A stretch of 34,251 nucleotides of DNA from Fidelibacterota bacterium (GTDB lineage Bacteria > Fidelibacterota > Marinisomatia > Marinisomatales > UBA1611). A program made the position numbers and the translations under genes. Position 1 is the stretch's first letter. Every line of letters starts with the position of its first letter. The stretch is from the NCBI GenBank assembly GCA_012964275.1, contig DTUG01000179.1, positions 1 to 34,251 of the forward strand, given 5' to 3'. The notes under the pieces were generated by a model. It did no database searches. It was not told where the DNA came from and saw only the letters and a program-made list of their open reading frames with translations. Of this stretch, positions 7,253 through 17,749 are shown piece by piece.

Positions 7253-8602
7253 ATGGCCAAAATAAAATCCAAGATACATTTTCTTTGTTCTGCATGTGGT
7301 GATGATTTTTCAAAATGGCATGGTCAATGTCCCACATGCAAGGAATGGGCGACTCTTTCTGAATTCAAGGTATCACCTAAAAAGAACGGACGCAAGATTG
7401 AGCCTCGTGAATCCAAATCACTTTCCAGTATTTTAACTCAAGAACCAAGGAAACGAATCCCAACAGGGCTCAAGGAAGCTGATCGTGTTTTGGGCGGTGG
7501 TTTAGTGCCTGGATCTCTGCTCTTGCTTGGGGGAAGTCCCGGTGTAGGAAAATCTACCTTAGCCCTGCACATTTGCTCCGGGATCAAACGCAAGGCCCTT
7601 TATATTTCTGCTGAAGAAAGTGAAGAGCAGGTTGCACTGCGAGCCCGGCGGCTAAATATAAATCCAGATCAACTCCACCTTTCAGGAGAGAATGAATTAA
7701 ACGGTATAATTTCACATATTGACAGAATCTCACCTGAGCTGGTGATTATTGATTCCATCCAGACTATCATGAACTCAGAGTTGGATTCATTACCTGGTTC
7801 ACCCAGTCAGCTTCGGGATTGTGGGCAGCGTTTCCTGGAAGTCAGCAAGCAAAAGGGTGTAATAATTATGATCACTGCTCATGTAACAAAAGAAGGGACT
7901 ATTGCTGGGCCAAAAATGCTGGAGCACATGGTGGACACCGTGCTGTACATGGAAGGAGATGATCGCTACGATCATCGTATTTTACGTTCCGAAAAAAACC
8001 GATTTGGCGCAACCCATGAAGTGGGGATCTTTAATATGGACGAAGAAGGATTGAGCGAAGTTGTCAATCCATCTGAAATGTTTTTGGCTGAGCGAAGTAA
8101 AAAAATCCCCGGAACTTGTATTTATCCTTCCTTGGAAGGGACCCGGCCTATTTTAGTCGAAGTTCAAGCATTGGTTTCCAATGCCAATTTTGGAACACCC
8201 CAGCGAAATGTGAATGGTTTTGATTTTCGCAGACTGTCAATGCTTATGGCTGTTCTGGAAAAACGAATGGGATTAATTGTAGGAACAAAGGATGTTTTTG
8301 TAAACCTAGTAGGCGGCCTACGGGTGGATGACCCGGCAGCAGATTTATCAATTTTGTGTTCAGTGGCATCCAGTGCTATGGATAAAGCCATAGATGAAAA
8401 TATAGTTTTATTGGGCGAAATAGGTTTAACTGGAGAAGTTCGTTCAGTCAGTCGATTGGAATATCGGTTAACAGAAGCTAAAACACTTGGCTTTAAAGAA
8501 GCAGTTGTACCTATAGCCAGTTTGAATGAAAAAGTAAAAAGGATAGGATTAATAATCCATTCCGTCCACTCAGTAAATAATGCATTTAAAGTATTATTTT
8601 AA
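7253..8602 (+). CDS. radA: DNA repair protein RadA/Sms
   Basis: Zn finger CSAC..CPTC, Walker A GSPGVGKST, IIDSIQT, KNRFG motif, Lon-like C-terminal domain. Confidence 0.97.
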   Translation: MAKIKSKIHFLCSACGDDFSKWHGQCPTCKEWATLSEFKVSPKKNGRKIEPRESKSLSSILTQEPRKRIPTGLKEADRVLGGGLVPGSLLLLGGSPGVGKSTLALHICSGIKRKALYISAEESEEQVALRARRLNINPDQLHLSGENELNGIISHIDRISPELVIIDSIQTIMNSELDSLPGSPSQLRDCGQRFLEVSKQKGVIIMITAHVTKEGTIAGPKMLEHMVDTVLYMEGDDRYDHRILRSEKNRFGATHEVGIFNMDEEGLSEVVNPSEMFLAERSKKIPGTCIYPSLEGTRPILVEVQALVSNANFGTPQRNVNGFDFRRLSMLMAVLEKRMGLIVGTKDVFVNLVGGLRVDDPAADLSILCSVASSAMDKAIDENIVLLGEIGLTGEVRSVSRLEYRLTEAKTLGFKEAVVPIASLNEKVKRIGLIIHSVHSVNNAFKVLF

Positions 8603-8698: not shown

Positions 8699-9832
8699 AT
8701 GAAATTTTCATTAACAAATACAGACGAAATCACATCCGCAAGGACAGGCATTTTAGAAACTGGTCATGGTTCTATCGAAACACCTGTATTCATGCCTGTT
8801 GGGACAGTGGGTGCTGTAAAAACTTTCGCGCCCCATGAACTGGAAGGCTTGGGTGCCCAGATTATCATTGGAAATACGTATCATCTTTATCTGCGGCCTG
8901 GAACAGATGTTATACATCAAGCAGGCGGATTGCAAAAGTTCATTAACTGGTCGAAACCAATTTTAACAGATAGTGGCGGTTTCCAGGTCTTTTCTTTAGC
9001 TCGATTGAATAAGATAACAGATGATGGGGTGGAATTCCAATCTCATCTGGATGGCAGTAGGCATACCATGACACCAGAAATATCCATGGAGATCCAGCGA
9101 AACCTAGGTGCCGACATTATTATGGCCTTTGATGAGTGTCCACCGGGTAATGCGGATAAAAAATCCATCAAGTCAGCCGTAGTTCGTACCGCTAAATGGA
9201 TGAAAAAATGCAAAGTTTTTCTTGATGAAAATCCACCCCTTTATAATTATGAACAAACACTTTTTCCAATTATTCAGGGAGCAGTGGATAAAGATTTGCG
9301 TAAAGCAAGCACTGATGAATTGATGCCTTATTCTTCATGCGGAATGGCCATTGGTGGCCTGGCTGTAGGAGAAGAAAAAAATGCTATGCTTGATACAATT
9401 GAACAGTGTGATGGTCTTCTGCCGAAGGATCAACCACGATATCTTATGGGTGTAGGGCGACCATCGGATCTGATTAATGCAGTCAGCCGGGGCATGGATA
9501 TGTTTGACTGTGTTATGCCAACCCGTAATGGACGTAATGGGCAAATTTTTTCAGGTATGGGTATTATCAATATTAATAATGAAAAATACAGAAAGGATTT
9601 TTCACCCATTGATGAAAACAATCCCCATGCTTTTGGTCGAATTTTCTCAAAAGCTTATCTTCGACATCTCTTCAATATCAATGAAATACTGGGTTTGAGG
9701 ATCGCATCTACATTGAACCTTGGATACTATCTGAATCTTATGACAATCATGAGACAAAAGATCCAGGCGGGTGATTTTAGTGCCTGGTCTAGGTCTTGGT
9801 TCAGAGACATGGAAGATAGGAAAGGGATGTAA
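8699..9832 (+). CDS. tgt: tRNA-guanine(34) transglycosylase
   Basis: ETPVFMPVGT, GNTYHL, LTDSGGFQVFSL, AFDEC, GGLAVGE, RYLMGVG, DMFDCVMPTRNGRNG. Confidence 0.97.
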   Translation: MKFSLTNTDEITSARTGILETGHGSIETPVFMPVGTVGAVKTFAPHELEGLGAQIIIGNTYHLYLRPGTDVIHQAGGLQKFINWSKPILTDSGGFQVFSLARLNKITDDGVEFQSHLDGSRHTMTPEISMEIQRNLGADIIMAFDECPPGNADKKSIKSAVVRTAKWMKKCKVFLDENPPLYNYEQTLFPIIQGAVDKDLRKASTDELMPYSSCGMAIGGLAVGEEKNAMLDTIEQCDGLLPKDQPRYLMGVGRPSDLINAVSRGMDMFDCVMPTRNGRNGQIFSGMGIININNEKYRKDFSPIDENNPHAFGRIFSKAYLRHLFNINEILGLRIASTLNLGYYLNLMTIMRQKIQAGDFSAWSRSWFRDMEDRKGM

Positions 9833-10293
9833 TGCCAAAAACAAAGATTCGCGTTGTTGATGCTTATGTATTCCGCCAAACGAAAAATGGTTTTCGGTTT
9901 TTACTATTAAAACGCGCTAGGACGAAGATGTATGAGCATCTTTGGCAGGGTGTAGCAGGTGAGATCGAAAAAGGTGAAAAAGCCTGGCAGACGGCGATCC
10001 GCGAGCTAAAAGAAGAAACAGGATTTGATCCGATACGAATATTTGTTGCGGATCATGTTAGCCGGTTTTATGAGACACATGGTGACCGCGTCAACCTGGT
10101 TCCTGTTTTTGGAATTGAAGTAGAAAATGGAGACGTAACCCTATCTAAAGAACATTGTGAATTTCAATGGGTTGATTTTGAGACTGCCAGAAACACTTTA
10201 GTCTGGAATGGGCAAAAGGAAGGCATTGCTGCTGTATTTGATATGTTAAATTCTAATGATGATAGAATCAAATGGTCAGAAGTAAAGATTTAA
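9832..10293 (+). CDS. NUDIX hydrolase, NudB (dihydroneopterin triphosphate diphosphatase)-like
   Basis: WQGVAGEIEKGE..WQTAIRELKEETG Nudix box and LSKEH motif like NudB (WQSVTG...LxEH); TAATG overlap with tgt. Confidence 0.75.
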   Translation: MPKTKIRVVDAYVFRQTKNGFRFLLLKRARTKMYEHLWQGVAGEIEKGEKAWQTAIRELKEETGFDPIRIFVADHVSRFYETHGDRVNLVPVFGIEVENGDVTLSKEHCEFQWVDFETARNTLVWNGQKEGIAAVFDMLNSNDDRIKWSEVKI

Positions 10294-10358
10294 CACGAAG
10301 ACCAACGAGAACTCAAAGTAATTTCTTGGAGAACTTTTTATTTTAAAAAGGAAATAAT

Positions 10359-10814
10359 ATGTTAGAAGAAGGTACAAAAGCACCGGATTTCACCATCGAT
10401 GACCAGGATGGTAATCCTGTTAGTTTAAATGATTTTGAAGGGCAGAAAATATTGCTCTGGTTTTATCCCAAAGCAAGCACCCCTGGATGAACGATCGAAG
10501 GTCAGGAGCTCCGGGATGAGTTCCAGAATTTTCAGGATAAAAATATTGCTGTACTGGGTATGAGTGCTGATTCTGTGACGAGACAGAAAAATTTTTGTGC
10601 TAAACAGGAATTTCCCTACCAGTTGCTATCGGATCCAGATAAAGAAACTATCCGTGCATACAAGGCGATTGGGATGAAAAAAATGTATGGCAAGGAGTAT
10701 GAGGGCATCCTGCGTATTTCTTATATTATTGATGAAAATGGAATGATTGAAATAGCCTATCCAAAAGTGCAGCCCAAGGAGCACGCACAACAGGTTCTGG
10801 CCGATCTTGCTTGA
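10359..10814 (+). CDS. bcp: Peroxiredoxin BCP/PrxQ, selenocysteine-containing (UGA at codon 44)
   Basis: AAGGA RBS, then ATG 10359: MLEEGTKAPDFTIDDQDGNPVSLNDFEGQKILLWFYPKASTPG-TGA(10488-10490)-TIEGQELRD..., continuing in frame into the 10560 ORF (MSADS...LLSDPD...RISYIIDENG). The TGA occupies the peroxidatic Cys of the PxxxTxxC motif. Confidence 0.9.
10502..10527 (+). promoter_or_regulatory. Bacterial SECIS-like hairpin
   Basis: Stem GGAGCTC (10505-10511) / GAGTTCC (10518-10524) with one G-U pair; loop CGGGAT with G at loop position 2; 21 nt between UGA and the loop; extendable by TC/GA pairs. Confidence 0.75.
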
Positions 10815-10831
10815 TTAATAATTCGCACTGA

Positions 10832-11368
10832 ATGGATCAGATTGTTCTGGTCGCAACGTGGCTAATGCTGGGCTATGCTCTGGTTGGTAGCATTGATGGT
10901 GTTTATTATCATCTCTATAAATTTAAACTATATGCCCATCCGGAGTCTCGATATGAACACATACTGCATACCATTCGCGTCTTAACATTTCCATTGGTAT
11001 TATTATTATTGTTTGTAAAAAACTATGGCGGTATTTACCTATGGTTGGGAACGGGATTGGTTATAGTGGATTTGTTGGTGGAGACCCTAGACATATATTC
11101 CGAGGAGAAGAGCAGAAAACATCTCGGTGGTCTGCCTCGAACAGAATACTATATTCACATGATGACCAATGGGCTGCATTTTGCGTCCATGGCTATGATT
11201 ATTGCAGTCAAACCTCTTTTTGCGTGGAAATTGAATTCTGAAATAGTTCTGAATCCATATCCGGAATTCACATCAATGATTTCAGCCGTTATGATCCCCG
11301 GAATAGTTATTTTATTTTTCCTGCATGTGTATCTCTATCTTTTTCCTCAGGGAAAGTTAAAAATATGA
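10832..11368 (+). CDS. Hypothetical integral membrane protein with several His/acidic motifs
   Basis: About 5 hydrophobic segments; motifs DGVYYH, HPESRYEHILH, D..EE..R, GGLPRTEYYIH; begins 17 bp after bcp. Confidence 0.75.
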   Translation: MDQIVLVATWLMLGYALVGSIDGVYYHLYKFKLYAHPESRYEHILHTIRVLTFPLVLLLLFVKNYGGIYLWLGTGLVIVDLLVETLDIYSEEKSRKHLGGLPRTEYYIHMMTNGLHFASMAMIIAVKPLFAWKLNSEIVLNPYPEFTSMISAVMIPGIVILFFLHVYLYLFPQGKLKI

Positions 11369-11401: not shown

Positions 11402-12337
11402 TTATAACATTAGGTACAATGCGTCATCTCTAAACCCTATTTCATTTGCTTTATCATTTAGATAGCCCATCATTACTGAGTGTCCTTGAATTTTTAATTC
11501 AGATTTACCTTTTTCATAATGAGTAAGATGGACAGGTGAATCTCCTAGGCAAAATGCAGCAGTATTTTCCGGGCAGATCCCGAAATGATGATTCTCAAAT
11601 TCTTCCAGATTTTCCCAATCATTTCTAAGTTGAAAGCCATTTTTTTGATTCACATCAGAAAAAGAGAAGATTATATCGGGGTTAGACTCTGTGTATAAAC
11701 ACCCAGCATAAATCGGCAACATAGCTTTGAATACCACCCAGGCAGTAGAAACAGGCTGCAGATTACAGGATAATTTTGTCCTGACTTTGAGATCCAGGGC
11801 CTTTTGTATACTGTTTGTATTGACAAGCAGGTTATAATGCGACAAACGGATAGATTTATCCTTAGTAATAAAAACGAGTGCTTCATCGCTAAGCAGAGCT
11901 TTGTATTTGGGGTCGAAAAAGGTAGGAAAAGATTTAATCTCACTGATTAGGTTGATTTTTGCAGGGATTTTTTTTGCAAAATTTTTTATCTTATCAATAG
12001 GAATTATAATTTCGTTTTCTATAAGTACACCAATAGCCCCCAAGTGCCAAATTCCAAATAGCAGTATTTCTGTCTGTGGAAATTCCAGTTGCTGGATAAT
12101 AACCCGATCTTTCGGCTGGATACCCAGCCCATCCAGCCAATGAGCTGTTTGTTGAACAAATTCATAAAACCGAAGGTTGGTAATATTTTTCTTTTTGTAA
12201 ATAATCTGATCACTGAATTTGATATTCTGACCTTCGATTAGTGACTGGGTACTGGGATAGGGGACCATATATTCAATAGGCTCAACATTACCGATGCACT
12301 GCGCTCGATAGATTCGATCAGCAAGACTGGCTGTCAT
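11402..12337 (-). CDS. Truncated/degenerate AMP-binding (adenylate-forming superfamily) protein
   Basis: Recognisable segments LGIQPKDRV, LGAIGV, IRLSHYNLLVN, ELKIQGHSVMMGYLND; lacks the TSGTTGxPKG loop, the TGD motif and the C-terminal domain; intact 311-aa ORF. Confidence 0.7.
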   Translation of the reverse strand: MTASLADRIYRAQCIGNVEPIEYMVPYPSTQSLIEGQNIKFSDQIIYKKKNITNLRFYEFVQQTAHWLDGLGIQPKDRVIIQQLEFPQTEILLFGIWHLGAIGVLIENEIIIPIDKIKNFAKKIPAKINLISEIKSFPTFFDPKYKALLSDEALVFITKDKSIRLSHYNLLVNTNSIQKALDLKVRTKLSCNLQPVSTAWVVFKAMLPIYAGCLYTESNPDIIFSFSDVNQKNGFQLRNDWENLEEFENHHFGICPENTAAFCLGDSPVHLTHYEKGKSELKIQGHSVMMGYLNDKANEIGFRDDALYLML

Positions 12338-12346
12338 ATATTGAGT

Positions 12347-12970
12347 TTATTTGTCTGGCTTGATCTTGCGTATAGATTCAAAAATGTTTGTGATCTTTGT
12401 GTAATTATTTCCTGCGAGTCGGCCTACTGGATTTAATTTTTCTAGATTAATCCTCCCGTTTTCGTACACGCCGTCATCAATATGGAACATGACAATGATT
12501 CCCATGACAACAAATCCACTTCCGGGAGATCCATCACCCACTTCTACAACCTGATAAAGTTTACATTCAAAACTGATCTGTGATTCTTGAACAAGGGGTG
12601 GTTTTACCTTTTGGGATGGGCCGGGGGTAAGCCCGGATTCATCAAATTCATTAATGGTCGGGTCAAAATCCGTGGCACATGTTACCATCTGATCAACAAA
12701 TCCTTCTGAAACAATATTGACCACAAATTCGTGTGTGTCCTGTATATTCTGTAATGTATCCTTGATTCCGCCATCGTATCCGCGGCGCCCTGGAGCAAAC
12801 ATTATAGTAGGCGGATTTGAGCAAACACCATTGAAATAGGAAAAAGGAGCCAGGTTTAGAATTCCATTTTTAGATATAGTAGATACAAAGGCGATTGGTC
12901 GGGGGACGATGGATCCGATCATCAATTTATGGGATTCTTTGAATGGATGCTCAGCAGGATCAAACAGCAT
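12347..12970 (-). CDS. Flavin reductase-like FMN-binding protein (DIM6/NTAB/flavoredoxin family)
   Basis: IVPRPIAFVST, NLAPFSYFN, KDTLQNI, EFVVN, VGRLAGNNY. Confidence 0.9.
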   Translation of the reverse strand: MLFDPAEHPFKESHKLMIGSIVPRPIAFVSTISKNGILNLAPFSYFNGVCSNPPTIMFAPGRRGYDGGIKDTLQNIQDTHEFVVNIVSEGFVDQMVTCATDFDPTINEFDESGLTPGPSQKVKPPLVQESQISFECKLYQVVEVGDGSPGSGFVVMGIIVMFHIDDGVYENGRINLEKLNPVGRLAGNNYTKITNIFESIRKIKPDK

Positions 12971-12975
12971 GGATA

Positions 12976-14118
12976 TTATAGCCAGGAAGATGGGTAATCA
13001 CTATCATCCACTGCTTTAGCCTGAGTTGTAATTTGAAGGGGTTTGAAAGTATCAATCATCACAGCCAGTTCATTGGTTTCCTTTGCACCCAATGATTCCT
13101 TGATCTTGCCGGGCTGGGGGCCATGAGGCAATCCCCCAGGATGAAAAGTTATAGAACCATCTTCCATACCTTTACGGCTCATAAAATTTCCTTTTACATA
13201 ATAGAGAATTTCATCCGAGTCTACGTTACTGTGAGCGTAGGGTGCAGGCACAGCATGGGGATGGTAATCATATAGGCGGGGGACAAAATTACAGATGACC
13301 AATCCCGGTGCTTGGAACACCTGATGGACCGGTGGAGGTTGATGCACCTTACCAGTGATGGGCATGAAATCATTTATATTAAAGACCCAGGGAAAAAAGT
13401 AACCATCCCACCCTATGATATCAAAGGGATGGGTTCGATATTCATAGGATTGATAGCCATCTTGGAGCCTAACCTTAACATTGACTGGACCATCAGTTTT
13501 GGGTTTCATATACTCAGGAGTGCGTATATCTCGTTCGGAGAGAGGGGAACTTTCCAGGAGTTGCCCATGTCTGTTTCGGTACCGTGAGGGTGTTTCCACA
13601 GGACCTGAAGTTTCTATAATAATCTGCTTCATAGGTTCATTGATTTCAAGTTGCCAGATAACCCCCCGTGGGATTATTGTATAATCACCAGGTCCCAAGT
13701 TTAACCTTCCAAAATTGGAATGTAGAAAACCTTTGCCTTCGTGGATAAAAATCACCTCGTCGTGATGACCATTTCGATAATATATATCCATGGAAGCGTT
13801 CACATGGGCTTTATAGAATTTGACGTCACTATTAAAGAAAAGGGGTATCCGAGCACTGATTGCATCCCCGGTAGAATTTAAGTTGTGGGTAAAAAGATGG
13901 TGATGACGATGTTCTTTTTTCCAGGGAACCAAACTAATTTGTCGAAATTTTCCAACTTTAGATACAGCCGTAGGCGGATTTATATGATAGACATTAGAAT
14001 AGATCCAACCGAACCCTTCACGGCTGATCAATTCTTCCCAGTAGAGGTCGCCTGATTCGTCGTAAAACTGGATATGCCGTTTTTCTGGTATCTGTCCTCT
14101 TTTTTGATAGAATGGCAT
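12976..14118 (-). CDS. hmgA: Homogentisate 1,2-dioxygenase
   Basis: HPFDIIGWDG, HQPPPVH, CNFVPR, PYAHSNVDSDE, HPGGLPHGPQPG, ELAVMIDTF. Confidence 0.95.
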   Translation of the reverse strand: MPFYQKRGQIPEKRHIQFYDESGDLYWEELISREGFGWIYSNVYHINPPTAVSKVGKFRQISLVPWKKEHRHHHLFTHNLNSTGDAISARIPLFFNSDVKFYKAHVNASMDIYYRNGHHDEVIFIHEGKGFLHSNFGRLNLGPGDYTIIPRGVIWQLEINEPMKQIIIETSGPVETPSRYRNRHGQLLESSPLSERDIRTPEYMKPKTDGPVNVKVRLQDGYQSYEYRTHPFDIIGWDGYFFPWVFNINDFMPITGKVHQPPPVHQVFQAPGLVICNFVPRLYDYHPHAVPAPYAHSNVDSDEILYYVKGNFMSRKGMEDGSITFHPGGLPHGPQPGKIKESLGAKETNELAVMIDTFKPLQITTQAKAVDDSDYPSSWL

Positions 14119-14124
14119 GGCGAA

Positions 14125-15111
14125 TTATACGATTTTGTTTTCTAAAACACCCAATTGTTCTACTTCCATCCGAACCACATCACCCTTTTGTATCCATCCA
14201 CCAGTATTTTCCGGCCGGAGTTCAAGGATGCATCCCGTACCAACTGTTCCGGATCCAAGATAATCGCCGGGCAACAGGTTTGTATTCATGGAAGCACGCT
14301 CGATCATTTTGGTGAATGGATGGTAAAGATCGTTTGTGTTCCCATCAGATATAAGGTTACCATTCACATGGCAGGTCATACGGAGATTTAGTCTTCCTTT
14401 ATCATCCCAGTTATGTTCCAATTCGTCGGGGGTCACCATGTAAGGGCCAAAACTGGATGCAAAATCTTTTCCTTTGGCCGGGCCAAGGTTCATGGCCATT
14501 TCTTCCCGTTGCAGGTCTCGTGCTGACCAGTCATTACAGATCGTGTAACCAGCAATGTATCTATCCGCGTCTTTTTGGTTGATGTCTGACCCGCCTTTGG
14601 CGATGATGACAGCGAATTCCAATTCAAAATCCAGTTCTTCTGTACCCCTTGGATAAGGGACATCTTCACCGTGTCCGTATAGTGCTGCAGGATTTGAAAA
14701 ATAGAATATAGCGATCTTGAACCAGTCCGGGTGCATTTCCAGTCCACGGAGTTTTCTTGCAGATTTCACGTGTTGTTCAAAGGCATAAAAATCACGGAAA
14801 GATTGCGGGTTTGGGACAGGAGGTAATAGTTGTACACCATCTTCCAAAACGGCAATGGGTTTTCCACCACCGGTATGAGATTGAATATTCATGTCCGGCA
14901 AAGAAGCATCCAATTCTTTCAATTTGGTGAAATTGGTATCCCAATTCTCCAATGTATTTTTCAGCGTAGACGGGATTTCAAGGAAGCTGGAATCACCTTT
15001 ATTTTCATTCACCCATATCGCAGCCCTGATCATATCTATTATATATTCATCTTTTTTAAAACCAAATCTGGATTGAGCCCCACCTTCCAGGTTGTAAGTC
15101 ACAAATTTCAT
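14125..15111 (-). CDS. fahA: Fumarylacetoacetate hydrolase family protein (fumarylacetoacetase by context)
   Basis: RDFYAFEQH, LDFELE, NDWSARDLQ, GPAKGKDF, PGDYLGSGT; located between hppD and hmgA. Confidence 0.88.
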   Translation of the reverse strand: MKFVTYNLEGGAQSRFGFKKDEYIIDMIRAAIWVNENKGDSSFLEIPSTLKNTLENWDTNFTKLKELDASLPDMNIQSHTGGGKPIAVLEDGVQLLPPVPNPQSFRDFYAFEQHVKSARKLRGLEMHPDWFKIAIFYFSNPAALYGHGEDVPYPRGTEELDFELEFAVIIAKGGSDINQKDADRYIAGYTICNDWSARDLQREEMAMNLGPAKGKDFASSFGPYMVTPDELEHNWDDKGRLNLRMTCHVNGNLISDGNTNDLYHPFTKMIERASMNTNLLPGDYLGSGTVGTGCILELRPENTGGWIQKGDVVRMEVEQLGVLENKIV

Positions 15112-16206
15112 TTAAAGGTTTCCTCTTCTTTCTTGTTCTCTTTCAATGGATTCAAATAATGCTCTAAAGTTGCCCTTTCCAAAACTGTTGGAGCCTTTCC
15201 GTTGGATGACCTCAAAGAAAAGGGTAGGTCGATCTTGGAGTGGCTGGGTGAAGATTTGGAGCATATAACCATTCTTATCTACATCCACCAGGATACCCAA
15301 ATCCGCCAGCGTTTCAACATCTTCCTCGATTGGGCCAACTCTATCGGTCAGGTTATCATAATAAGTTCTTGGGGTAGGAAGAAAATCCACACCGTTCTCC
15401 CGCATCATTCTCACGGTGGAAATGATGTCTCGTGTGGACATGGCCAAATGCTGGACACCGCCAGTTTCATAATAATCAATAAACTCCTGGATTTGTGATT
15501 TCTTCAGACCATCCGCTGGTTCATTGATGGGCATCTTTACGACTTCATTATCATTGGCCATCACAATAGAACGCAGGGCAGAATATTCGGTGTTGATATC
15601 CTTGTCATCCACACTCCAGAATCGGTGCCAGCCAAAAACCTTCTCATAAAAATCACAAACGGGCTGCATATCGCCATCGGGCTGATTTCCAACAACATGG
15701 TCAATATGAACCAGCCCTGTTGAATCAACTTTCAATCCAAAATCATTAGATTCAAAACCAGGGAGAAATGAACCTATATAATTATTCCGCTCCACAAATG
15801 TATGGATCGTGTCGCCGAATGTTTCAATGGCAGAAACAACGGCTTCGCCATCATCATCCTTGATCTCATTCGGCTCCATGGCACTTTTGGCGCCACGCTC
15901 CAATGATGTTTTCCATGCTGCTTCTGCATCGTTTACCCTAAAAGCGACATCTTTGACACCATCACCGTGACGATCAATGTGTTTGCCAATTTCCGTATTT
16001 TTCTCCAGAGGAGAGGTAATAACCAGGTTGATTCTGTCTTGGTTCAAAACATAACTGACCCTGTCACGAGTTCCGGTTTCCAAGCCACGGTAAGCCACCG
16101 GCTGAAACCCCATTGTGGTCCGGTAATAGTAGGCAGTCTGTTTTGCATTGCTTACGTAGAATTCGCAATGGTCAAATTCTTTGATCGAGTAATTTAAATC
16201 GCCGAT
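15112..16206 (-). CDS. hppD: 4-hydroxyphenylpyruvate dioxygenase (probable start at ATC 16206, not ATG 16113)
   Basis: HGDGVKDVAF, IDHVVGN, KMPINEP, SQIQEF, GVQHLA, LQIFT, FFEVIQR, FGKGNFRALFESIE. The conserved N-terminal DHxEFYVxNAKQ segment lies upstream of ATG 16113, in frame. Confidence 0.93.
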   Translation of the reverse strand: MGDLNYSIKEFDHCEFYVSNAKQTAYYYRTTMGFQPVAYRGLETGTRDRVSYVLNQDRINLVITSPLEKNTEIGKHIDRHGDGVKDVAFRVNDAEAAWKTSLERGAKSAMEPNEIKDDDGEAVVSAIETFGDTIHTFVERNNYIGSFLPGFESNDFGLKVDSTGLVHIDHVVGNQPDGDMQPVCDFYEKVFGWHRFWSVDDKDINTEYSALRSIVMANDNEVVKMPINEPADGLKKSQIQEFIDYYETGGVQHLAMSTRDIISTVRMMRENGVDFLPTPRTYYDNLTDRVGPIEEDVETLADLGILVDVDKNGYMLQIFTQPLQDRPTLFFEVIQRKGSNSFGKGNFRALFESIEREQERRGNL

Positions 16207-17288
16207 AGGACACTCCTTAAACTTTCAATACATTGAATATTTTCTTCTTCAAGTCCCACAGATATCCGAATACAATTTGGCCAGCCAAAAGCTGTCAATT
16301 GTCGCAGAATCACGCCTTTTGCCAGTATATTTTGATGTATTTTTGCAGCTTGCTCATCTGATTCCCAGATTGTGGTGATGAAATTTGCAGCACTGGGAAC
16401 CTGCTCAATACCTAAATTATCTAATTCGTCTTTCAAATAAGACATTCCTTTTTGGTTAGTCTGGATGGTTTTTTCCAAAAATTCTATATCATCCACAGCT
16501 GCTGTGCCTGCAGCCTGAGCCACCAGTGATGGTTCAAAAGGTACTTTTACCTTCATCAGATTATTGATTAGTATATCATGAGCAAAACCATATCCGATCC
16601 GAATTCCTGCCAATCCATAGGCTTTGGAAAAAGTTCGAAGTGTGATCACGTTATCGTAACGATAACTCATGGAGTCTGGGTAGTCTGGTGAATCCTGGGC
16701 AAATTCGTAATAGGCTTCATCCAAGATAATAAGTATACGCTCTGACACGTGAGAAAAAAACTCATCGAATTCTTCACGGGTCACATAGGTACCCATGGGA
16801 TTGTCCGGGTTGGCAATATAAATGATCTTGGTGTAATCCGTGATCTTGTCAGCCATGGCTTGCAGGTCGTACCGGTGATTTTTCATAGGGACCCAATGGA
16901 CCCGTCGACCAGATGCATTGGCCAAAACACGAAATCCGATGAAAGAATTATCGGCACTGATGAGCTCGTCATCGCTTAATAAGAATGTTCTCATGATAGT
17001 AGACATGATCCCTTCAGAACCGGCACCGAGAATCACATTTTCCATCTTAACGTTGTATTGCTTAGCCAATTTGTTTCGTAGTTCATAGCCAGTGGCATCG
17101 GGATAGCGATGAAATCGATTAAAGGATTTTTCGACGGCTGCCAATCCTTTTGGAGAAGGGCCTAGTGGATTTTCGTTGGATGCCAGCTTAACGAAATCAG
17201 CCCTCCCCAGTTCCCGTTGGGCTTCGGTAATGGGTTTACCAGGCTTGTAGCTGGCCAGTTGTTTGATGTATGAAGGAACCAGTGCCAT
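16194..17288 (-). CDS. HisC-family PLP-dependent aminotransferase (probably aromatic amino acid aminotransferase by context)
   Basis: YKPGK, KLASNENPLG, RYPD, NPDNPMG, DEAY, RTFSKAYGLAGIRIGY, RISVG; start is ATG 17288 or TTG 17294. Confidence 0.88.
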   Translation of the reverse strand: MALVPSYIKQLASYKPGKPITEAQRELGRADFVKLASNENPLGPSPKGLAAVEKSFNRFHRYPDATGYELRNKLAKQYNVKMENVILGAGSEGIMSTIMRTFLLSDDELISADNSFIGFRVLANASGRRVHWVPMKNHRYDLQAMADKITDYTKIIYIANPDNPMGTYVTREEFDEFFSHVSERILIILDEAYYEFAQDSPDYPDSMSYRYDNVITLRTFSKAYGLAGIRIGYGFAHDILINNLMKVKVPFEPSLVAQAAGTAAVDDIEFLEKTIQTNQKGMSYLKDELDNLGIEQVPSAANFITTIWESDEQAAKIHQNILAKGVILRQLTAFGWPNCIRISVGLEEENIQCIESLRSVLSAI

Positions 17289-17290
17289 GG

Positions 17291-17749
17291 TCAAATCACC
17301 AACCGCGTCTCCTGTTTAAAGGTAGAAAGAACAACCGATGTTTTCAAGTTCTGTACATTGGGCAAAGCAGATAATTGATGCAGAATCAATTCCTCATAAC
17401 TGGGGATATCTTTAGTAGCGATCTTTAAAAGAAAATCTGCTTCCCCGGTGATGTGATGGCATTCCAAAACTTCAGGTATATCAGCAATGGATTTGAAAAA
17501 ATCTTCTACGGGTGTTTCTCCATGGCGGGCTAGTTTTACTTCAACATAGGTAAAACAGCCGTAGCCGGCTAACCGAGGATTCAATAAAGTGATATATTTG
17601 TCAATGAGCCCTGATGTCTCCAGTTTCTTGACCCTTTCCAGGGTGCTGGATGGGGAAAGGCCCACGTGCCTGGCTAGTTCTGTATTGGTGATGCGGCTAT
17701 TCTCCTGAAGCTTATCCAGTAATTGTATGTCTTTACTATCTAAATTCAT
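17291..17749 (-). CDS. Lrp/AsnC family transcriptional regulator
   Basis: LDSKDIQLL..LQENSRIT..ELARHVGLSPS..LERVKKLE HTH; ECHHITGEADFLLK ligand-binding domain. Confidence 0.95.
   Translation of the reverse strand: MNLDSKDIQLLDKLQENSRITNTELARHVGLSPSSTLERVKKLETSGLIDKYITLLNPRLAGYGCFTYVEVKLARHGETPVEDFFKSIADIPEVLECHHITGEADFLLKIATKDIPSYEELILHQLSALPNVQNLKTSVVLSTFKQETRLVI

Follow-up and report, generated by a model that had tools for sequence, protein, structure and literature searches.

A Predicted Selenocysteine at the Peroxidatic Position of a BCP/PrxQ Peroxiredoxin from Marinimicrobia (SAR406)

Contig DTUG01000179.1 (C179) of assembly GCA_012964275.1, a Fidelibacterota bacterium (Marinimicrobia/SAR406) genome of 2.12 Mb in 255 contigs with a completeness of 81.6%, provides the 34,251 nucleotides analyzed here, to which we refer as the window. 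Judging from its sequence, the stretch 10359–10814 of this window is almost certainly an intact gene encoding a selenocysteine (Sec)-containing peroxiredoxin of the BCP/PrxQ subfamily and not a broken gene. We propose that the gene product carries Sec as its peroxidatic residue, that recoding of the in-frame UGA is driven by a hairpin downstream of it, and that the enzyme would work in a thioredoxin-dependent cycle with probable resolution by Cys80; we place the probability of this explanation as a whole at about 0.92. The frame contains a single internal TGA, codon 44, in the context FYPKASTPG-U-TIEGQ, and translation with genetic code table 11 yields just an 84-residue tail, the open reading frame (ORF) 10560–10814. 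A sequence-only reading of the window had remarked that the ORF track reports only these last 84 residues, and had proposed that a full 151-codon BCP starts at the ATG at 10359 behind AAGGA, that UGA falls exactly on the catalytic cysteine of the PxxxTPGC motif, and that homology continues in frame on both sides of it. These statements were borne out: the frame and motif are as described, the column of the TGA at 10488–10490 is occupied by Cys codons in homologs, and a single Pfam match (AhpC-TSA, PF00578; residues 5–131, E 1.8e-35, 122 bits against a cut-off of 26) spans the TGA.

The assignment to the subfamily has several supports. The read-through protein scores above the cut-off of the NCBIfam Bcp equivalog (NF006960; 158 bits against 140), matches PrxQ/BCP sequences in the Protein Data Bank (PDB) up to E 8e-33, and gives an AlphaFold model (predicted local distance difference test, pLDDT, 96.5) that Foldseek aligns with BCP/PrxQ structures at template-modeling (TM) scores of 0.91–0.96. 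In this model, U44 lies in the first turn of helix 42–53 (α-2). Pro37, Thr41, position 44 (Sec or Cys), and Arg119 are invariant among 30 orthologs, and we take Arg119 to be the catalytic arginine given what is known of the family and its alignment with the GIERS stretch of Xanthomonas campestris PrxQ (XcPrxQ). Both the Pxxx(T/S)xxC motif, as defined in the text of PMC8945050, and the conserved arginine that characterize BCP/PrxQ proteins are found. Scoring above the family cut-offs, the protein is predicted from sequence and model to be a BCP/PrxQ-subfamily peroxiredoxin with thioredoxin-dependent activity.

The in-frame TGA is shared with relatives. A search with the read-through protein against 40 related genomes and its own genome returned 33 ortholog rows with 53–99% identity over residues 1–149 or more and an open frame, 27 with one TGA and 6 without. 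For codon comparison and alignment we extracted 30 orthologous loci, in which the catalytic column holds TGA (25), TGC (3), or TGT (2), the mixture that a search for homologs with TGA or TGC at this column had been suggested to look for, and in which no other column contains a stop codon. A named public set was drawn at one genome per species from 596 confirmed relatives, of which the best 80 were used; four of these 80 also occur among the loci of the first set. It has TGA at this column in 12 loci and TGT or TGC in 68; the 12 TGA loci are all labeled Marinimicrobia or 'uncultured bacterium', and the 68 Cys loci are mostly from Bacteroidota. Three independent DNA studies supply contigs that cover positions 10488–10490, as does one RNA-library contig, and no variant letter appears there in any of them. 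Public contigs in all three DNA runs often break or branch at about 10503–10548, a region that includes the hairpin and the peptide LRDEF, with variant letters from 10536; the probable cause is that, in the assembly graphs, differences between strains run into a stretch that is conserved.

Fourteen nucleotides 3' of UGA-44 begins a hairpin, GGAGCUC-CGGGAU-GAGUUCC, with a 7-bp stem. A bacterial selenocysteine insertion sequence (SECIS) is described in the text of PMC1088965 as a hairpin just 3' of the UGA with a small apical loop that contains a G, and the position, stem, and CGGGAU loop of this hairpin agree with that description. Across the 25 Sec-form sequences of the orthologous loci, pairing is kept in 91.4% of cells and four of the seven stem pairs show compensatory two-sided changes; the covariation score of 0.242 compares with 0.161 for shuffles, of which none in 500 attains it, and at most 0.129 for controls with slid partners. 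In the clearest case, a replacement of one amino acid goes with a synonymous change on the other arm, Leu-CUC being accompanied by Glu-GAG in 19 sequences and Phe-UUC by Glu-GAA in 6, with no mismatches; CUC is the rarest Leu codon of the genome (8.3%) and GAG the minor Glu codon (25%). Sec forms pair at 5–7 of the 7 positions (mean 6.4 in the 25 orthologs and 6.25 in the 12 named loci), compared with a mean of 2.49 of 7 in the 68 Cys forms of the named set. An extension of the stem by an outer helix (10497–10503 with 10525–10532) was considered and rejected, with 57% of cells paired and zero compensatory changes. Rfam and ARAGORN gave no match on the window, the hairpin included; the tRNA-Sec sits on another contig.

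The gene also ends in TGA, and the sequence-only reading had concluded that the codon has two meanings in one gene. This holds in the present genome but is not general, given that the terminal codons of the 30 orthologs are TAA (19), TAG (6), and TGA (5). The hairpin 3' of this stop, at 10834–10852, had raised the question of whether the terminal TGA encodes another Sec, which we rejected: the fold is no better than that of shuffles (z of −0.78), the read-through tails of the five TGA-ending orthologs look unrelated, and the other 25 of 30 end in TAA or TAG. That hairpin (GAUCAGA-UUGU-UCUGGUC, plus strand) has 7 bp, lies 20 nt past the terminal TGA, and spans the start of the next ORF; we take it to be due to chance or tied to the start of the next gene.

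Most of the machinery for Sec incorporation is encoded elsewhere in the genome. Contig C27 carries a tRNA-Sec whose anticodon is TCA (66.9 bits in Rfam, cut-off 47; ARAGORN agrees), and we identified adjoining selA (TIGR00474, 493 bits against 268) and selB (TIGR00475, 345 bits against 242) genes on contig C193, so that the suggested search for the Sec machinery succeeded for these three components but not for the fourth, selD. In the relatives, SelD scores above the family cut-off in all 25 genomes searched; a single in-frame TGA occurs in 24 of the 25 matches (e.g., L122–L125), so that in this lineage SelD is apparently itself a selenoprotein. The genes for thioredoxin and its reductase adjoin on contig C6, and their products could provide the reductant. 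TGA terminates 391 of 1302 frames of at least 200 codons in the genome, and therefore has not been reassigned genome-wide.

The protein lacks the CxxxxC motif. As the sequence-only reading had noted, the usual resolving cysteine is missing (position +5 is Gln, in EGQ) and the only cysteine is in KNFCAK, at a position of the helix-3 type; this residue, Cys80, lies 36 residues after U44 in helix 73–83 of the model, the combination (a cysteine 36 residues on and none at +5) expected of the α-3 resolving type. A close characterized parallel is XcPrxQ (PDB 5IIZ, 3GKK, and others), which aligns without gaps over residues 11–150 (E 3.4e-27) and whose structure matches the model with a TM score of 0.91 and 36% identity. 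U44 corresponds to Cys48 and Cys80 to Cys84 of XcPrxQ, the two proteins have the motif NFCAKQ in common, and neither has CxxxxC (TPGCTTEGL in XcPrxQ and TPGUTIEGQ here). XcPrxQ differs in that it is a gammaproteobacterial protein with Cys instead of Sec, and in that the disulfide between its peroxidatic (CP) and resolving (CR) cysteines has been solved, whereas the corresponding Se–S bond is a prediction. Its PDB entries, according to the text of PMC8113037, include C48S and C84S mutants and the CP–CR disulfide forms 5IOX and 3GKK. In a residue table of 110 rows (106 distinct loci, as four named loci duplicate loci of the first set), the +5 residue of the 37 Sec-form rows is Gln in 32, Lys in 3, Glu in 1, and Cys in 1, and Cys80 occurs in 27 of the 37. 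Cys80 appears to be a trait of the clade and not background, given that it is found in 0 of 68 CxxxxC-type relatives.

Based on this anatomy and the established bacterial Sec pathway, we hypothesize that the hairpin at 10505–10524 recruits SelB and Sec-tRNA(Sec), such that UGA-44 is read as Sec, and that the UGA at 10812, which has no conserved element behind it, would lead to termination. By analogy with the family, the selenolate of U44 in the PxxxTxxU/Arg119 pocket would reduce a hydroperoxide and become a selenenic acid. Here, as in most orthologs, Cys80 in helix α-3 would then probably attack this acid after local unfolding, resulting in an intramolecular selenenylsulfide that thioredoxin would reduce. 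In orthologs that lack Cys80, thioredoxin or another thiol would have to reduce the selenenic acid directly, in a '1-Sec' cycle. Sec insertion, peroxidase activity, and the Se–S bond are thus all predictions drawn from the Sec pathway and the family.

Two alternatives would deny position 44 a Sec altogether. That a nonsense mutation has turned Cys into a stop, or that a sequencing or assembly error has done so, in an ordinary Cys-BCP would be in keeping with the failure to find SelD in this genome and with the fragments that table 11 gives. We regard this as highly improbable given that 25 of the 30 orthologous loci, which come from different species, share the TGA and keep an intact frame after it, that three independent DNA studies also have it in their contigs, that the hairpin covaries, and that tRNA-Sec, SelA, and SelB are encoded in the genome; the recurrence of the same TGA in related loci, named loci, and independent-study contigs excludes both an error of sequencing and a nonsense mutation private to this genome. 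Less credible still is a genome-wide reassignment of TGA to Trp or Gly (tables 4 and 25), the reading adopted by some public gene calls of near-identical contigs, in which both TGAs are translated as Trp to give 168 residues. The use of TGA as terminator of long frames argues against it, as does the alternation of column 44 with Cys codons only; the 17-residue tail of the 168-residue reading has no counterpart in orthologs, 25 of 30 of which stop at that point with TAA or TAG. The peroxidatic position supplies the nucleophile of a peroxiredoxin, which neither Trp nor Gly at this position could do.

Several observations weigh against the Sec-PrxQ interpretation or reduce the force of its support. 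The most direct is that selD was not found in the organism's own 81.6%-complete genome, where the sole match (32.5 bits) is a 345-residue ORF that is presumably PurM-like; this absence is most likely an assembly gap, because about 18% of the genome is missing, but the pathway as recovered from this genome is incomplete. Taken by itself, the hairpin region does not have an exceptional folding energy (z of −1.17 for 53 nt and +0.38 for 81 nt), so that the support for the hairpin comes from conservation, and this conservation is in turn partly at the protein level, because the stem sits within a conserved peptide, L/F-R-D-E-F, and 6, 6, and 7 of the 7 pairs persist in three Cys revertants. The orthologs are kin, and counts across them overstate their independence. 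The single RNA-library contig spans 10348–10608, and because DNA carry-over is possible in such libraries, it does not prove transcription. Lastly, the support for the Sec-PrxQ is at the level of sequence and modeled structure.

A third alternative concerns only the Se–S step and would make the protein a 1-Sec enzyme, in which Cys80 has no catalytic role and the selenenic acid of U44 is reduced directly, whether by thioredoxin, by glutaredoxin, or by a small thiol. We consider this a real possibility, though not the one we would expect. The sequence-only reading had taken the placement of Cys80 to imply a Se–S resolving pair; the placement makes such a pair plausible, but Cys80 is missing from 10 of the 37 Sec-form rows, and three orthologs (L030, L035, and L036) have no cysteine at all and still keep the TGA and the hairpin. 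The best PDB sequence match, 5enu, has no cysteine at +5 or at the α-3 position in the alignment, and the text of a review (PMC8945050) states that the majority of prokaryotic BCPs lack the resolving cysteine. Against the 1-Sec cycle stand the presence of Cys80 in most Sec-form rows at the site of the proven resolving Cys84 of XcPrxQ, and its absence from every one of the CxxxxC-type relatives. We therefore regard the Se–S cycle as plausible and not obligatory, given the Sec forms without Cys80.

In a quick maximum-likelihood tree, which gives neither the root nor the direction of change, the gene falls in a clade of 44 rows (37 Sec and 7 Cys) that is supported by an SH-like approximate likelihood ratio test (SH-aLRT) value of 100 and sits on a long stem among Bacteroidota BCPs; those rows with informative labels are Marinimicrobia. 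The Bacteroidota Cys-BCPs (e.g., of Flavobacteriaceae), among which this clade branches, are its nearest relatives outside Marinimicrobia among the best 80 of 596, with 49–58% identity over the full length, and are distinguished by TGT or TGC at the catalytic column together with CxxxxC (CTAEAC), by the lack of Cys80 in all of them, and by the absence of the hairpin. The minimum number of changes on the tree is five for Sec/Cys, one for the +5 Cys, and five for Cys80. Cys forms are found deep within Sec groups (L014 beside L018, L023 with L026, and L041 beside L040), which we read as reversions. L014, L023, and L026 (genomes G004, G019, and G005), which have TGT or TGC, lie inside the Sec clade with 6–7 of 7 pairs and Gln at +5, and have the appearance of recent reversions from Sec to Cys in which the SECIS persists as a fossil. 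L108, from an uncultured bacterium, is the sole Sec form with Cys at +5 (UTVEGC); it has a long branch at the unresolved base of the clade and may be an intermediate between the CxxxxC forms and the Sec forms with Gln at +5. We tentatively speculate, without expecting it to be the likelier course of events, that in Marinimicrobia the gain of Sec at PrxQ went with the loss of the helix-2 resolving cysteine, followed by either a Se–S bond to a helix-3 cysteine or no resolver at all; because the +5 Cys changes once on the tree, the association between Sec and its loss has no replication.

Sec-containing peroxiredoxins, as the sequence-only reading had stated, are known in bacteria. The TxxU Prx selenoprotein family (COG1225/PF00578) has been in print since 2005, with 43 genes in the Sargasso Sea (Zhang, Fomenko & Gladyshev 2005, PMC1088965), 253 members in the Global Ocean Sampling (GOS) data (Zhang & Gladyshev 2008, PMC2398784), 12 members in complete genomes, for which 5 changes from Cys to Sec were inferred (Zhang et al. 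2006, PMC1794560), and 91 members in 78 organisms (Peng et al. 2016, PMC5029168), as given in the text of these papers. The present gene shares with this family the Pfam/COG family, the T-x-x-U motif, the downstream SECIS hairpin with a G in its loop, and the marine origin, and differs in nothing essential; the text of the papers gives no assignment to Marinimicrobia and no arrangement of resolving cysteines, and that of Peng et al. (PMC5029168) mentions three SAR406 single-cell genomes solely as holders of an 'orphan SelD'. The gene adds to a family that has long been known and leaves knowledge of selenoproteins unchanged, publications from 2005 on having placed TxxU Prx with the most abundant selenoprotein families of the sea, and the arrangement of the resolving residue within the clade is only a mildly new angle. 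PrxU of Eubacterium acidaminophilum was reportedly studied by Sohling and coworkers in 2001. The text of a 2026 review (PMC13188914) treats it as an experimentally established Sec peroxiredoxin and, through it, counts the family among those with experimental support. Like the predicted product of the present gene, PrxU is a PF00578 peroxiredoxin whose peroxidatic residue is Sec and whose UGA is recoded by a bacterial SECIS; it belongs to another subfamily, however, whose equivalog (NF040737, 233 positions) the present protein matches with 38.6 bits against a cut-off of 270. The text of another review (PMC10298544) is silent on Sec-peroxiredoxins and treats peroxiredoxins as non-selenoproteins. 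Judged by titles and the openings of abstracts, none of the papers retrieved on Marinimicrobia/SAR406 selenoproteins and on PrxQ selenocysteine concerns this gene in this phylum.

The gene is not the only candidate selenoprotein gene of the genome. Family searches that read through stops recovered at least five further TGA-bearing redox-gene candidates (table 1), each with a small hairpin whose loop contains a G, 13–18 nt after the TGA. A region at C142:5137–5406 (minus strand) has a weak thioredoxin match and one TGA. A blind scan of the genome for frames read through one TGA, with at least 10 codons upstream from a start, at least 20 downstream, and at least 90 in total, gave 1612 candidates, 642 after a redox-motif filter, and was dropped as too many for Pfam.

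The gene neighborhood of the peroxiredoxin is conserved and composed of housekeeping genes. The order Tgt–NUDIX–Prx is kept in 26 of 30 related-genome loci, so that the peroxiredoxin gene appears to be an old resident and not a cassette. Upstream of tgt lies an ATPase gene whose product we take to be RadA. Directly 3' of the peroxiredoxin gene, a hydrophobic ORF of 178 residues (10832–11368, plus strand) has no match in Pfam or NCBIfam, was found in 0 of 29 related loci, and looks like a lineage-specific insertion; a homolog of the following gene (11402–12337, a weak AMP-binding match) is encoded downstream of the peroxiredoxin in 23 of the 29, directly behind it in the rows inspected. Farther along the window are a flavin reductase gene (12347–12970) and, on the minus strand at 12976–17749, genes for an HgmA_N-like protein, an FAA hydrolase, an HPPD-like dioxygenase of the glyoxalase fold, a class I/II aminotransferase, and an AsnC-type regulator; this cluster looks like one for aromatic amino-acid (homogentisate-type) catabolism.

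Table 1. Features of the Predicted Sec-PrxQ Gene, Its Upstream Neighbors, and Further Candidate Selenoprotein Genes of the Genome (G000)
Feature	Position	Strand	Basis
AAGGA, Shine-Dalgarno-like motif (putative role)	10348..10352	+	read from sequence; 6 nt 5' of ATG
Complete Sec-BCP/PrxQ coding sequence, 151 codons + terminal TGA (predicted)	10359..10814	+	translation, Pfam, NCBIfam, model, Foldseek
Codons Pro37–Thr41 of PxxxTxxU active-site motif	10467..10481	+	P37 and T41 invariant in 30-sequence alignment
TGA codon 44, predicted selenocysteine U44 at peroxidatic position	10488..10490	+	conserved TGA/Cys column; aligns with Cys48 of XcPrxQ
SECIS-like hairpin, arms 10505–10511/10518–10524, loop CGGGAU 10512–10517	10505..10524	+	fold and conservation
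TGT Cys80, sole cysteine, candidate resolving residue in helix α-3	10596..10598	+	alignment with Cys84 of XcPrxQ; model
CGT Arg119, conserved peroxiredoxin active-site arginine	10713..10715	+	invariant in 30-sequence alignment
Terminal TGA, read as stop	10812..10814	+	homology ends there; ortholog stops
KaiC/DnaB-type ATPase	7253–8602		family match
Tgt	8699–9832		family match
NUDIX hydrolase	9832–10293		family match
Second PrxQ, TPGUIKEAC, hydrophobic N-terminus (candidate)	among G000 loci C26:4008–4370(−), C244:9649–10050(−), C128:7–327(+), C231:22513–22896(+), C47:1887–2099(+)		family search
Two near-identical Prx-like UxxC genes, APGUPVC (candidates)	among the five listed G000 loci		family search
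Thioredoxin-like gene, SWUPSC (candidate)	among the five listed G000 loci		family search
SelW-like CxxU gene, CSVU (candidate)	among the five listed G000 loci		family search

The gene is poorly served by public annotation, as had been anticipated for Sec-peroxiredoxins, which were said to be routinely misannotated as split genes. Its 43-residue head and 84-residue tail are both on record as separate proteins, in clusters of 11 and 91 members, respectively. All 11 members of the head cluster have 43 residues, and the 15 listed of the 91 members of the tail cluster have 79 (9), 84 (2), 107 (1), or 168 (3) residues. In P0004, an ENA gene call of 168 residues from a near-identical contig, both TGAs are translated as Trp, as if with table 4, which adds a 17-residue tail; P0010, P0011, and P0015 are further 168-residue members of the tail cluster. 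Given that the gene is stored as fragments or as a Trp read-through product, 'hidden' is a fair description of its state in the databases.

Marinimicrobia are an abundant phylum of the deep ocean and of oxygen-minimum zones, and because this gene and its orthologs are stored as fragments or as a Trp product, the peroxide defense and the selenium demand of the phylum are under-counted. The at least six candidate selenoproteins of the thioredoxin fold in this genome, together with the apparently Sec-containing SelD of its relatives, point to a selenium-dependent redox toolkit in SAR406. If the proposed exchange of resolving residues in Marinimicrobia PrxQ is true, a single ortholog group would present a graded series composed of 2-Cys, U-x4-C, Sec with an α-3 cysteine, and 1-Sec forms and Cys revertants with a fossil SECIS. 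Such a series could show the benefit that selenium confers, for example, freedom from a protective resolving cysteine, selenenic and seleninic acids being readily reduced.

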